NCBI GenBank assembly: GCA_902609885.1 | Contig: CACLTT010000006.1 | Span: forward strand, 6,802 to 70,801 | Reading direction: 5' to 3' | Length of the DNA stretch: 64,000 nt | DNA from: an uncultured Candidatus Hydrogenedens sp. | GTDB lineage: Bacteria; Desulfobacterota_D; UBA1144 | Part shown: in pieces, positions 32,163 through 40,733 of the stretch | Layout of the letters: each line of letters begins with the position of its first letter | How positions within the stretch are numbered: position 1 is the first letter of the stretch | Notes under the pieces: model-generated | Seen by the model: only the letters and a program-made list of their open reading frames with translations | Told to the model about the DNA's origin: nothing | Databases searched by the model: none | Position numbers and translations under genes: made by a program

Positions 32163-32918
32163 TTAAGCATCAACTTCAGTTGTAGCAGCAGCCCATATTG
32201 CTAAACAGAAACCGATTTTATTTATAAAATCTGCAACGTTATAAACTATATTAAGAGTAGCTTCATCAGTACCACCAGCTAAATATCCTAGAAAATACCC
32301 TAAAGGATAAATTGCCCAGCCTATAGTAACAATCCATTTCATTGTATTGAAAGCTGACTGAACCGAAGGTTTAGCATTTGCAGCACTTTTACTTGCTTCT
32401 CCAGAGAAGATCTCATACAGAATATAAGCCCAACCAGCCATACCTACAACAAAACCAATTGTTGTATTTATAAAACCAGCTTCACCCATATAACCTGCTA
32501 CAACCATAACAACAGTACCTATCAATAGTCTCCAAAAGACTCCCATAGAAACCGCAGTAACAGCAGCAAGAATAAGATAGAACTCAACCATCTGTAATGG
32601 AACAGTTACAATCCAATCAACGTATCTAAATACCGTTGGAGATGTACCTGTAGATGCCCATACTTCTCTCATGTAAAAATAGTGAACGCCTGCAACCAAA
32701 CAAATAAGTCCGCCAACAACCAATGATGTTCTAAATTTCCCTGTAACTCTTAAAGATTCAAGGAAAAAGAACGCTGTAGCGGCAACCATTGCAACTGATA
32801 TGATCCAGAAGGATATACCTACTGCATCATCCGGGGCTAAATTAGAACCAGCATATGATACTAATGGCATGCAAGCTATAATTGCGGAAAGTAAAAAGTA
32901 ATTTACATATTTTGACAT
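32163..32918 (-). CDS. proteorhodopsin (light-driven H+ pump; blue-tuned Q variant)
   Basis: 251 aa, 7-TM with a signal peptide. RYVDWIVTVPLQMVEFYLIL gives the D (acceptor) and E (donor) at the proton-pumping positions and Q at the tuning site. The retinal Lys lies in ADFINKIGF. A strong SD (AGGGAGG) is 7 nt upstream. Confidence 0.93.
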   Translation of the reverse strand: MSKYVNYFLLSAIIACMPLVSYAGSNLAPDDAVGISFWIISVAMVAATAFFFLESLRVTGKFRTSLVVGGLICLVAGVHYFYMREVWASTGTSPTVFRYVDWIVTVPLQMVEFYLILAAVTAVSMGVFWRLLIGTVVMVVAGYMGEAGFINTTIGFVVGMAGWAYILYEIFSGEASKSAANAKPSVQSAFNTMKWIVTIGWAIYPLGYFLGYLAGGTDEATLNIVYNVADFINKIGFCLAIWAAATTEVDA

Positions 32919-37941: not shown

Positions 37942-38610
37942 ATGAAATCAATTATAAACGAAATAAAATATAATGAAAAGAATCTTGTTCCTACTATAGT
38001 TCAAAACTATTTAAATGGAGATGTTCTTATGTTTGCTTTTTCAAATGAAGAATCATTGAATAAAACAATATCAACAAATTATGCTCATTTTTGGAGTAGA
38101 AGCAGAGAAAAATTGTGGAGAAAAGGTGAAGAATCCGGAAATACCTTAGAAATTAAAAATATATATGTTGATTGTGATAGAGATTGTATTTTATTTACAG
38201 TTATTCCTGCGGGTCCAGCTTGTCACACAATGAGAATATCATGCTTTCATAATGATCTAGATGAAATTTCAGATGAAAAACCTCTAATAGAAACCGGTGT
38301 TATGGACAAAGTATTTAATATTATCGAAGAGAGAAAAAAAGATATGGGTATGGAAAATTCATATACTTCATCACTTTTTAAAGAAGGATTGAATAAAATC
38401 TTAGATAAAATAAAAGAAGAATCAGATGAATCAATAGAAGCTTCTTTAATTAAAGATCATACAAATATTGTATATGAATATACTGACCTGCTTTATCATA
38501 TGATGGTTGCTTTGTCATATCATGATATAAAAATTGAAGAAATATTTTCTGAACTAGAAAGAAGGATCGGAAAAAAGAAGAAAGACTACACTTTGGATGA
38601 ACGAGAATAA
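37942..38610 (+). CDS. hisIE: bifunctional phosphoribosyl-AMP cyclohydrolase / phosphoribosyl-ATP pyrophosphatase
   Basis: 222 aa. An N-terminal HisI core (Cys ligands in DCDRDC) and a C-terminal HisE MazG-like helical segment. Confidence 0.8.
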
Positions 38611-38824
38611 CAAAAAACTAGCCTGGAATGAAATAACCAGACTTGGTGATTTTTTGAAAAATAAGTTACCAGAATCTAAATATCATCCTAATGGAAGAAA
38701 TCCATATGCCCATATTTTGGTTTTAATAAAAAAAAAGTTTGGCTGCAGTTATAAAGATATTAAAGATGAAGATTTTAAAACTTTACTAAGATTTATTAAA
38801 TTTATAAAAGCAAAATACAATTAA
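38597..38824 (+). CDS. hypothetical small protein (75 aa)
   Basis: ORF overlapping the hisIE stop by 14 nt, basic and Lys-rich, with no family recognised. Confidence 0.35.
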   Translation: MNENNKKLAWNEITRLGDFLKNKLPESKYHPNGRNPYAHILVLIKKKFGCSYKDIKDEDFKTLLRFIKFIKAKYN

Positions 38825-39360
38825 AGTATTTTTTTCCTAGATTTATCTTGGTATTGATGCTTGTATCTATTATCAGCCTTTATATTGTGCGGCCTATCCT
38901 TCTCTTCGATATAGTCAGTTATAGCAAGTTTACCTCTAATCTCTTTAGGCAAATCCTTCATACCAGGGGGTTTAGGAGGATCTGTAGAAAGATCACTTGT
39001 ATATGAAAAAGAAGATATTACTTTTTCTACCCTTCCTTTTTCACAGCAACCACACTTAACTTTTTTTTCGTCTTCTTTATCTAAAATTAATTCAGAAAAT
39101 CTAAAATCATCAACAGAAAATAAAACCATTTTTTTACCATCTTCAATATAAAGATCTATGTCAACTAGTTCACCCGTAAGCTTCCCAGCACTACAAATTT
39201 CTTCTTCTTTAATTAAATCAACTAAAATAACAGCCTTAATTTGAGAATATTTTTTCAAAACTGACTTAAGAGTTTTTAAATTTGGAGTTTTTTCAATTAA
39301 TTTTAATGAATCAAGAACTTGATTCCTACATGTTACACATTCAAATTCATAAAGTGGCAT
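38821..39360 (-). CDS. FmdB-like split zinc-ribbon protein with ~95-aa insert and disordered C-terminal tail (paralog 1)
   Basis: 179 aa. The N-terminus MPLYEFECVTC (FmdB-family MPxYEYxCxxC) is the first knuckle, and the second knuckle KCGCCEKG lies about 100 aa downstream. The Pro/Lys-rich tail contains PKPPG. Confidence 0.6.
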   Translation of the reverse strand: MPLYEFECVTCRNQVLDSLKLIEKTPNLKTLKSVLKKYSQIKAVILVDLIKEEEICSAGKLTGELVDIDLYIEDGKKMVLFSVDDFRFSELILDKEDEKKVKCGCCEKGRVEKVISSFSYTSDLSTDPPKPPGMKDLPKEIRGKLAITDYIEEKDRPHNIKADNRYKHQYQDKSRKKIL

Positions 39361-39370
39361 TTAATTATTC

Positions 39371-39913
39371 CTACTCTGATCCATATGAACCATCATGCTG
39401 AGAATTTCCAAAATATTGGTTAAGATGATCTTGTCCTACCCAATTTGAAGCTTGTTGTTCATCCTTCATAACTTTATAGTCTTTATGCCACTGTAAGGGG
39501 TCACCAGGCTTTGGTGCTCTATCTTTTTCACCCCCTCGTTTTTCGAAAATAGCTTTAAAAGGTGAAAATACTCTCGTAATATCTTTACATTTTTTATTAC
39601 AAGGGCATTTAACATTTTCTACTTTATCACCTTCAAAAAAAAGCTCGCTGAATTTAAAGTCCACTAACTCTAAATATAAAAATTTTTTTTCATCTAATTT
39701 ATATCTAAAACGCCTAATTCCTTTATTGCCCTCTTTACCAACAGAAAAAACTGTCTTTTCTGTTTTAGGATTAAGTAATTCAATGTATTTAAAATTCTTA
39801 TTCTTTTTTGAAAGACCTTCTGCATACTTTTTATTCAAATTTTTAACAAGCTTATCTATTTCCTTGTTATAAGATGTCATACAGTCTTTACATTCAAATT
39901 CGTATACTGGCAT
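39371..39913 (-). CDS. FmdB-like split zinc-ribbon protein (paralog 2 of tandem pair)
   Basis: 180 aa. MPVYEFECKDC ... VDFKFSELFFEGDKVENVKCPCNKKC is colinear with paralog 1 (VDDFRFSELILDKEDEKKVKCGCC). The tail contains PKPGDP. Confidence 0.6.
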   Translation of the reverse strand: MPVYEFECKDCMTSYNKEIDKLVKNLNKKYAEGLSKKNKNFKYIELLNPKTEKTVFSVGKEGNKGIRRFRYKLDEKKFLYLELVDFKFSELFFEGDKVENVKCPCNKKCKDITRVFSPFKAIFEKRGGEKDRAPKPGDPLQWHKDYKVMKDEQQASNWVGQDHLNQYFGNSQHDGSYGSE

Positions 39914-39959
39914 AATTAATTCCTTTTAAAAACCTATAATATAGCCTAATATAACCGAT

Positions 39960-40733
39960 ATGGAAAGTTTTGTTAAATTTCAAATTATTGATAATATTGG
40001 ACAAATTCTGCTAGATAATCCCGAAAAAAAGAATGCTATATCTCCCGAAATGATAAAAGATATAATTAAACATATAGATTCGGTCGAAGACAATCCCCAA
40101 GTTAGATGTATATTAATCGCGAGTAGTAATAATAAGATTTTCTCATCTGGTTACGATATTTCTTCAATAAAAGAGGATTATAATGATGAAAATCACCCAT
40201 TAATCAAAGTTACTAACCACATAAAAAATTCAGGAAAAATAGTTGTAACTGTAATTAATGGACACATTTTTGGAGGAGCATTAGAAATTGCTATTAGTTC
40301 AGATTTTAGATTTTTCTCTAAAGATGCAATTTTTTGTGTTCCGCCAGCAAAACTTGGAATTCCATATAGTTATCAAGGTCTAAAAAACTTCATAAATTGT
40401 GTGGGAACATCAAATACCAAAAAAATTTTTCTAACGGGTGATAAATTTAATTCTGACGATGCTATTAACATGGGAATCGCAAATTTTATTTCAAAAAATA
40501 CTGAAATAATTTCAGACGCTATGGAATTTTGTAAAAAAATATCAAAGAATGCACCCTTATCATTATCAACCTTAAAGAAATCGATTAATGCATTTCAATC
40601 ATCGCAAACTTTAAAATTGGATGATCAAGAATTAATAAAAAATCTTATTATTAAAATTCAAAATAGTAAAGATTTTATTGAGGGTAGAAAAGCATTTAAT
40701 GAAAAAAGGGAGCCTAATTTTAAAGGTAAATAG
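39960..40733 (+). CDS. enoyl-CoA hydratase/isomerase family protein (crotonase fold)
   Basis: 257 aa with crotonase-fold motifs (e.g. NGHIFGGALEIAI). Confidence 0.75.
   Translation: MESFVKFQIIDNIGQILLDNPEKKNAISPEMIKDIIKHIDSVEDNPQVRCILIASSNNKIFSSGYDISSIKEDYNDENHPLIKVTNHIKNSGKIVVTVINGHIFGGALEIAISSDFRFFSKDAIFCVPPAKLGIPYSYQGLKNFINCVGTSNTKKIFLTGDKFNSDDAINMGIANFISKNTEIISDAMEFCKKISKNAPLSLSTLKKSINAFQSSQTLKLDDQELIKNLIIKIQNSKDFIEGRKAFNEKREPNFKGK

Follow-up and report, generated by a model that had tools for sequence, protein, structure and literature searches.

A tandem pair of FmdB-like proteins in Dadabacteria, each with a probable zinc ribbon split by an inserted domain

To our knowledge, the FmdB/Ruc proteins are among the most widespread small protein families in bacteria, and Ruc is the only member with a demonstrated activity. 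Here we describe two adjacent genes, A and B, found in a 64,000-nucleotide stretch of contig CACLTT010000006.1 (positions 6,802 to 70,801; hereafter the window), which encode FmdB-like proteins whose ribbon is very probably interrupted by a folded domain. The characterised member, Ruc, consists of a zinc ribbon of the form CxxC-N17-CxxC, which holds one zinc ion through its four cysteines, and of a C-terminal tail (PMC7448276). On oxidation it turns into a holdase, an activity for which the tail is needed; the tails of its family are variable, hydrophilic, of low complexity and intrinsically disordered, and ruc genes often lie beside chaperone genes (PMC7448276). Rv0991c, the M. tuberculosis locus tag of Ruc, is annotated as belonging to the FmdB family (PMC13407613), and thiol redox chemistry is suggested by the selenoprotein (CxxU) forms of FmdB (PMC2398784).

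Architecture of the two proteins

Both window proteins begin with the FmdB signature MP[LV]YEFECxxC, as a preliminary description of this DNA had stated, and the Pfam Zn_ribbon_8 (PF09723) and NCBIfam TIGR02605 models match them there. In the native proteins these matches cover residues 1-14 only and remain below the curated cut-offs (34.4 bits for Zn_ribbon_8 and 31.3 bits for TIGR02605), with 26.6 and 27.3 bits for A, and 17.9 and 19.9 bits for B, respectively. When residues 14-86 were deleted in silico, A rose to 37.9 and 37.4 bits, over both cut-offs and with the models matched end to end, and the same deletion brought B to 27.1 (Pfam) and 31.0 (TIGR02605) bits, just under them. A soil B protein (P0138, scanned in its excised form only) scored 45.9 and 51.2 bits. 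As the native scores are below the cut-offs and excision lifts A over them and B almost to them, A and B are homologs with a disrupted FmdB domain.

A hidden Markov model (HMM) built from 79 A and B sequences was searched against 1.84 billion representative proteins. It returned few full-length clusters, and its weaker matches (E 1e-8 to 1e-3) were ordinary FmdB proteins of 60-90 amino acids (aa). These canonical proteins align in two stretches, profile positions 1-14 with their residues 1-14, and profile positions 87/88-120 with their residues 14/15-47. In both window proteins C11 and C103 are separated by 91 residues, and the canonical spacing, about 17-18 residues within one compact ribbon of some 41 aa, is recovered only without residues 14-86.

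For both proteins, AlphaFold2 predicted the same order of elements, that is a strand (residues 3-8), two helices (9-24 and 28-37) and five strands (41-48, 53-59, 66-72, 77-83 and 87-91), followed by the second knuckle and a last strand (111-114), an agreement which is not independent because both runs were fed the same merged A+B alignment. The predicted local distance difference test (pLDDT) was about 90 over residues 11-60 of A and 81-94 across its residues 1-100, and 75-89 in the core of B. Because the two-piece matches, the in-silico excision, the natural uninserted orthologs described below and the AlphaFold2 predictions agree, we consider it very likely that both proteins are FmdB/Ruc-type Cys4 ribbons in which the chain exits after the first CxxC knuckle and re-enters at the second strand, [RK]FSEL. 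The proposal of a split FmdB-type ribbon in tandem paralogs is thus upheld. The two open reading frames (ORFs) lie exactly as first given and are paralogous (31% identity over residues 1-119, that is 119 aa, E 1e-14 with BLASTP), and the 64-kb window contains no other FmdB-like ORF. The first reading had also recognised no described family: indeed, HMM searches found no dedicated Pfam or NCBIfam family for A or B, and the sources name them only 'hypothetical protein'. The arrangement is a class-specific, previously undescribed architectural variant of a known family.

Alignment with the uninserted orthologs delimits the insert to residues 14-86 in both proteins, which corrects its length from the roughly 95 aa initially proposed to 73 aa. 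The region had been said to be conserved between the two copies, and a profile-profile comparison of A and B restricted to the insert bears this out, with 90.5% probability, E 1.4e-6 and 60 columns in register, where 20 column-shuffled controls gave no E below 0.05. It follows that both inserts are of common origin, with identical length and point of insertion. At E < 1e-3, no free-standing or otherwise embedded homolog of the insert was found among the 1.84 billion proteins; the entries P0176 and P0181 proved to be pieces of broken B and A proteins, respectively. Pfam gave no hit to PAS/Cache for the whole proteins and none at E <= 10 for the isolated inserts, a search of PDB sequences with the A and B profiles gave nothing meaningful (best, tau repeats at E 0.68), and Foldseek against the PDB gave nothing at E <= 0.001, the KinD and CqsR domains being matched with a best E of 0.078. 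As modelled, the insert can be read as a small alpha/beta sandwich of two layers, with a fold of the PAS/profilin/Roadblock class, yet it is probably a member of none of these families.

Conservation of the pair and its uninserted orthologs

Our tblastn set comprises 86 loci, six obtained via protein look-ups and 80 via a GTDB scan with one genome per species (96 loci, of which the best 80 are listed). The loci of the scan are labelled Candidatus Dadabacteria, Thermodesulfobacteriota, 'Deltaproteobacteria' or unclassified bacterium, with a few automatic 'Spirochaetia' labels; in the NCBI placement, Dadabacteria is a class within Thermodesulfobacteriota. The best match is 96% identical (metagenome-assembled genome SP78), UBA1144 and TMED58 being close relatives. 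The databases contain more than 190 relatives of family A and, among the matches listed, at least 28 of family B, none with an informative name.

B precedes A on the same strand in 85 of the 86 tblastn loci, the exception (L075) being cut by a contig end, and one further locus (L089) brings the number of pairs to 86. Apart from that truncated locus, no genome among the loci examined has just one of the two genes. Across marine and soil genomes the proteins of the 86 loci keep about 50% amino-acid identity, their length and their start, and the genes of the pair have good Shine-Dalgarno motifs. The spacer measures 3-28 nt in 85 loci, and 8-12 nt in 61 of these. The slot is also constant across the 86 pairs: enoyl-CoA hydratase (ECH) is divergent from B, A follows B and converges on hisIE, and rpoZ comes next; the pair is two genes from rpoZ in every clade. 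On the ECH side lies era, and NUDIX and aspS genes are further neighbours. The duplication had been thought odd for a streamlined genome, but it is no peculiarity of such genomes: it is ancient and occurs in all the Dadabacteria loci examined, marine as well as soil (86 loci). Tandem FmdB pairs are otherwise rare: among 77 generic FmdB loci from metagenome contigs of other organisms we saw a single one (L140, 3001-3482, plus strand), with two adjoining FmdB ORFs of 60 and 78 aa. A defence or phage origin was rejected, as PADLOC and PHROGs gave no significant family and the viral-contig scan contained no relative.

Three irregular entries were met in the databases. P0121, an NCBI protein of 266 aa from a 1529-nt contig, is an in-frame B-A fusion (...YGTESE-QD-MPLYEFEC...) truncated at the contig end; it reflects either a lost stop codon or a sequencing error, and, if real, it is a Rosetta-stone hint that A and B act together. 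In P0148 (145 aa) the first 23 residues of B run into a UbiA-like membrane protein (PF01040), probably through chimeric assembly. In P0152 (L089) an A-type protein carries an unrelated C-terminal tail, which may stem from a frameshift, and the locus is still a B-then-A tandem.

The first knuckle is practically invariant: C8 occurs in 86/86 of both families, and C11 is missing from a single A protein (A 85/86, B 86/86). The second knuckle retains two or more cysteines (84/86 of A, 86/86 of B) despite a drifting spacing. This knuckle had been described as a CxxC, which does not hold in the marine clade: window A has the cluster C103/C105/C106 (KCGCCEKG, CxCC) and window B C103/C105/C109 (KCPCNKKC, CxCx3C). 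In family B the second knuckle is CxxC in 69 of the 86 loci, and always so in the non-marine ones. In family A it is CxC in 49, CxxC in 21, CxCC in seven and CC in seven, the non-marine proteins having CxC (46 loci) or CxxC (21 loci). In the marine clade the second knuckles of both proteins were remodelled together, to CC, CxCC or CxC in A and to Cx5C or CxCx3C in B. Because the number of cysteines persists under altered spacing, this pattern argues for a putative metal or thiol function.

Conservation of the tails equals or exceeds that of the insert, with a mean column entropy of 0.90 versus 1.49 bits in A, and of 0.61 versus 1.26 bits in B. They had been taken for differing, disordered extensions. 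The models fit with disorder, since they show little structure for these segments in the monomer (pLDDT < 50 over most of their length, except for a helix at residues 140-155 of B); the rest does not hold, since the tails are conserved and partly homologous, A and B having P..P and Y..KD positions in common. The motif of A is DLSTDMPKPDLSNLPP..YIEEKDRP and that of B WVGQDHLNQYF. In the marine clade (L007-L022; window 38824-38890 and 39374-39409) both proteins have additional C-terminal extensions, a basic HNIKADNRYKHQYxDKxKxKLL in A and GNSQHDGSYGSE in B.

Four loci of Dadabacteria-like lineages (L090-L092, from GCA_044345325.1 and GCA_965367475.1, and L095) encode an 85-aa B-like and an 87-aa A-like protein without residues 14-86. 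These short pairs sit in the identical slot and order, between a divergent ECH and a convergent hisIE followed by rpoZ, with longer B-A spacers (68-105 nt). Their proteins P0175/P0228 (85 aa) and P0230 (87 aa) are plain FmdB proteins by score, above both the Pfam and the TIGR cut-off. When P0175 is aligned with the family B protein P0138, residues 1-11 match 1-11 and residues 15-85 match 90-168, including the C-terminal HLNQYF motif. The short B-like protein indeed ends in ...GMDHLNQYFH, and the short A-like protein has DLSTDMPKPDLSGLP..DYIEEKDRPKANR. Since the uninserted orthologs bear the same tails, the tails would either predate the insert or be independent of it. In the short-pair lineage, genes for an AhpC/Redoxin peroxiredoxin and for a Zn_Ribbon_1 protein of 177 aa are located some 4-5 kb upstream of the pair (L090, 167-1494, minus strand; also L091 and L092); the window has neither at that position.

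In all, 86 loci have both proteins long, four loci from two lineages have both short, and none is mixed. As the short pairs contain both B and A, the duplication is older than the difference in insert state. In neighbor-joining (NJ) trees of HisIE and RpoZ, with or without Era, rooted on E. coli and including one run without the long-branched marine clade, L090 was basal to the insert-bearing genomes in 0/100, 0/32 and 0/50 bootstraps; because they never put it basal, the marker trees favor a double loss of the insert. A paralog-rooted tree of ribbon and tail placed the short forms outside the long-form clades in 60/60 (B) and 38/60 (A) bootstraps, which favors a gain after the A/B split. The two approaches, both short NJ trees prone to long-branch effects, thus point opposite ways. 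Either way, the simplest route would be a single event that gene conversion then transferred from one tandem paralog to the other. The same two orthologs with and without a folded domain in the same slot constitute a natural experiment on domain insertion, and such before and after forms allow the insertion of a domain into a minimal metal-binding fold, and the concerted evolution of tandem paralogs, to be studied.

Possible function of the pair

Our best guess, to which we assign a probability of roughly 0.4, is that A and B form a heteromeric zinc/thiol-switch module related, by analogy, to the redox chaperone Ruc. The four cysteines of each protein would bind one zinc ion as in canonical members, and the metal site would then staple the two ends of the insert together. 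A and B would assemble into a hetero-oligomer with the inserts as pairing platform. The Zn(Cys)4 center might act as a zinc/thiol (redox) switch, as shown for Ruc (Rv0991c). When oxidized or stripped of zinc, it would hold the base of the insert less tightly, and the tails would become available to partner or client proteins. The components of this proposal do not have the same weight. We lean towards a heteromeric A-B pair, and hold a Ruc-like redox-switch activity, which is drawn from the analogy, to be on the doubtful side. The full picture, of a class-specific, indispensable hetero-oligomeric zinc/thiol switch whose folded domain, for pairing or sensing, arose or disappeared in the two paralogs concertedly, is improbable as a whole. 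If true, it would mean that an ordinary FmdB/Ruc ribbon pair was turned into a new stress-signaling or chaperone-adaptor module with a dedicated conserved partner.

Several observations weigh against this proposal. Around the second knuckle the pLDDT is only 65-74, and the topology shared by the two models comes from one merged alignment. The marine-clade knuckles (CC, CxCC, Cx5C) are unusual geometries for zinc ligands. The conserved tail motifs, unlike the variable tails of Ruc, suggest a specific partner over promiscuous client binding, and the neighbors of the pair (hisIE, rpoZ, enoyl-CoA hydratase and era) include no chaperone genes. These last two points fit better with a single specific partner, and hence with the pair being a regulatory factor that binds nucleic acid, RNA polymerase or the ribosome, its zinc ribbons and basic surfaces contacting RNA, DNA or a core machine, its tails docking on one conserved partner and its insert modulating this contact. 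We consider such a regulator or adaptor unlikely. In its favor, the short tail motifs are strongly conserved, as they would be if they served one conserved partner, helix alpha2 carries a strong positive charge in A and in B (+2.9 and +4.2), the tail of A is basic (+3.1), the pair is universal in the loci examined and retained in streamlined marine genomes, and its distance to rpoZ is constant. FmdB proteins are traditionally annotated as regulators, and the FmdB domain is a candidate essential domain in a Burkholderia Tn-seq study (PMC8770471). However, the proteins as a whole carry only a modest net charge (+3.4 and +1.7), there is no Pfam hit to any nucleic-acid-binding domain, and the linkage to rpoZ may be plain inherited synteny. 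Moreover, we know of no FmdB protein that binds nucleic acid, and none has been shown to do so in the literature we found.

A and B could also be subfunctionalized paralogs that do not interact, each acting alone or as a homo-oligomer, and that are adjacent by inherited gene order. Throughout the region (era, ECH, hisIE, rpoZ) gene order is kept within the class, which makes adjacency alone weak evidence, and the tails of A and B differ strongly, with net charges of opposite sign. This is nevertheless improbable in our view, because the insert is present in both proteins or in neither, the second knuckles of both were remodelled in parallel in the marine clade, the conserved spacers are very short, which is consistent with coupled translation, and, the truncated locus L075 aside, neither gene was found without the other in the loci examined. 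The charges are, furthermore, reciprocal: strand beta4 has +4.9 in B and -1.0 in A, and the tail -2.6 in B and +3.1 in A. Together with the putative dimer-forming fold class of the insert and with the P0121 fusion, the shared insert state, the parallel knuckles, the short spacers and these charges are the grounds for preferring a hetero-oligomer.

The insert could in turn be a small-molecule sensor of Cache/PAS type, where a ligand bound between the sheet and the helices would alter the presentation of the tails, and the proteins would work as cytoplasmic one-component-like sensors. The E values of the Foldseek matches are not significant, and no PAS/Cache sequence profile matches. The insert is very small, its predicted topology of two helices and then consecutive hairpins lacks the pocket-lining helices which PAS and Cache domains have between beta2 and beta3, and the invariant polar residues differ between A and B, so that no shared pocket is evident. 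In addition, the insert-less short forms keep the same tails and slot, which implies that the core function needs no sensor. We therefore regard a sensor as very unlikely. Finally, that the ORFs are not real genes, or that the insert is an annotation or assembly artefact, for which only the AT-rich sequence could be invoked, where long ORFs are rarer by chance, is refuted by the identity of about 50% with kept length and start in the 86 loci, by the more than 190 database relatives, by the good Shine-Dalgarno motifs and by the confident AlphaFold2 core.

Whatever its precise role, the pair has been kept by marine Dadabacteria with very small genomes and occurs at all the Dadabacteria loci examined, and it is probably important for these uncultured, globally distributed bacteria. 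It also provides a clear marker for the lineage, narrow as this lineage is.

Features of the locus and relation to known systems

The features of the two genes are collected in Table 1.

Table 1. Features of genes A and B, with positions in the window
Feature	Position	Strand	Description
Promoter match upstream of B	39948..39976	-	sigma-70-like, TTAACA-17-TATATT, in the divergent ECH/B intergenic region; consensus match only
Gene B	39371..39913	-	180 aa + stop; upstream member of the pair; probable FmdB-type ribbon with insert
B residues 1-13	39875..39913	-	first ribbon strand and first knuckle (MPVYEFECKDCMT; C8, C11)
B residues 14-86	39656..39874	-	73-aa alpha/beta insert: two helices and strands beta2-beta5
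B insert, detail			beta4 strongly basic (RRFRYK); the next strand, 87-91, is ribbon sequence
B residues 87-118	39560..39655	-	second ribbon strand (KFSELF), acidic loop, second knuckle (C103, C105, C109), third strand
B residues 119-180	39374..39559	-	conserved C-terminal tail RAPKPGDP..HKDYKVMKDE..WVGQDHLNQYF; most conserved segment of family B
B end			acidic conserved tail ...WVGQDHLNQYF, then marine-clade extension GNSQHDGSYGSE
B-A spacer	39361..39370	-	10 nt; AGGA Shine-Dalgarno-like motif overlapping the B stop codon
Gene A	38821..39360	-	179 aa + stop; downstream member of the pair; probable FmdB-type ribbon with insert
A residues 1-13	39322..39360	-	first ribbon strand and first knuckle (MPLYEFECVTCRN; C8, C11)
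A residues 14-86	39103..39321	-	73-aa alpha/beta insert, homologous to and co-linear with the B insert
A residues 87-118	39007..39102	-	second ribbon strand (RFSELI), EDEK loop, second knuckle (C103, C105, C106), third strand
A residues 119-179	38824..39006	-	conserved tail SDLSTDPPKPPGMKDLP...DYIEEKDRP and marine extension HNIKADNRYKHQYQDKSRKKIL
A end			tail DLSTD.PKPPG..DYIEEKDRP, then basic marine-clade extension

Because the AGGA motif in the short spacer overlaps the stop codon of B, A and B are probably co-transcribed and translationally coupled. Promoter-like sites in the ECH/B intergenic region are no commoner than in shuffles. On the other side of the pair, a 75-aa ORF (38597-38824, plus strand) runs towards gene A, in convergent orientation, and shares the stop codon region of hisIE by overlap. 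It is found with 55-91% identity in 16/16 marine-clade loci (L007-L022), is absent from the non-marine loci and has no Pfam hit; it is probably a real, marine-clade-specific gene. Elsewhere, the window, which derives from a streamlined marine Dadabacterium, encodes a bacteriorhodopsin-like protein (32163-32918, minus strand; PF01036, E 2.8e-44), in agreement with the rhodopsin (proteorhodopsin) described for these organisms (PMC8115339).

Among the systems to which the pair can be compared are the Roadblock/LC7 proteins (MglB, LAMTOR/Ragulator, dynein LC7). The dimer-forming Roadblock fold (alpha-beta-beta-alpha-beta-beta-beta) has a helix between beta2 and beta3; the predicted element order of the A/B insert differs from it, there is no sequence match, and no small GTPase partner is evident near A and B, save the housekeeping era. 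The Cache/PAS-like (PDC) extracytoplasmic sensors (CqsR 9nia, TlpC 5wbf, KinD 4jgo) lack sequence similarity to the insert as well as a significant Foldseek match, and the insert differs from them in being smaller, cytoplasmic, without inter-strand pocket helices and embedded in a zinc ribbon. With Hsp33, a redox-regulated Zn-Cys4 chaperone whose sequence and fold are unrelated to those of A and B, only a functional analogy is possible, namely a Cys4 zinc center coupled to a region exposed on oxidation, as has been argued for Ruc (PMC7448276). We also noticed weak, sub-threshold matches (E 2.6e-4 to 9e-3) of P0150, P0175 and P0228 to DUF1178 (PF06676), over the B-type second ribbon half and the tail, which may indicate a distant link between two uncharacterized zinc-ribbon families.

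As regards Ruc, the low pLDDT (< 50) over most of the A and B tails fits disorder in the monomer; unlike the tails of Ruc homologs, these tails consist of conserved motifs (entropy 0.90 and 0.61 bits), and the A and B genes are not linked to chaperone genes. With respect to the FmdB family as a whole (PF09723; TIGR02605 CxxC_CxxC_SSSS; COG2331), A and B differ by the 73-aa folded domain between the first knuckle and the second strand, which sets their Cys pairs about 91 instead of 17-18 residues apart, by native scores below the family cut-offs, by their fixed tandem arrangement, and, in many members, by a CxC, CC or Cx5C second knuckle in place of CxxC (CPxCG). They nevertheless share with this family the motif MPxYE[YF]xCxxC at the initiator methionine, a second strand reading F[SE]EL, the sequence V.[RK]..S.F after the second Cys pair, and a tail after the ribbon.

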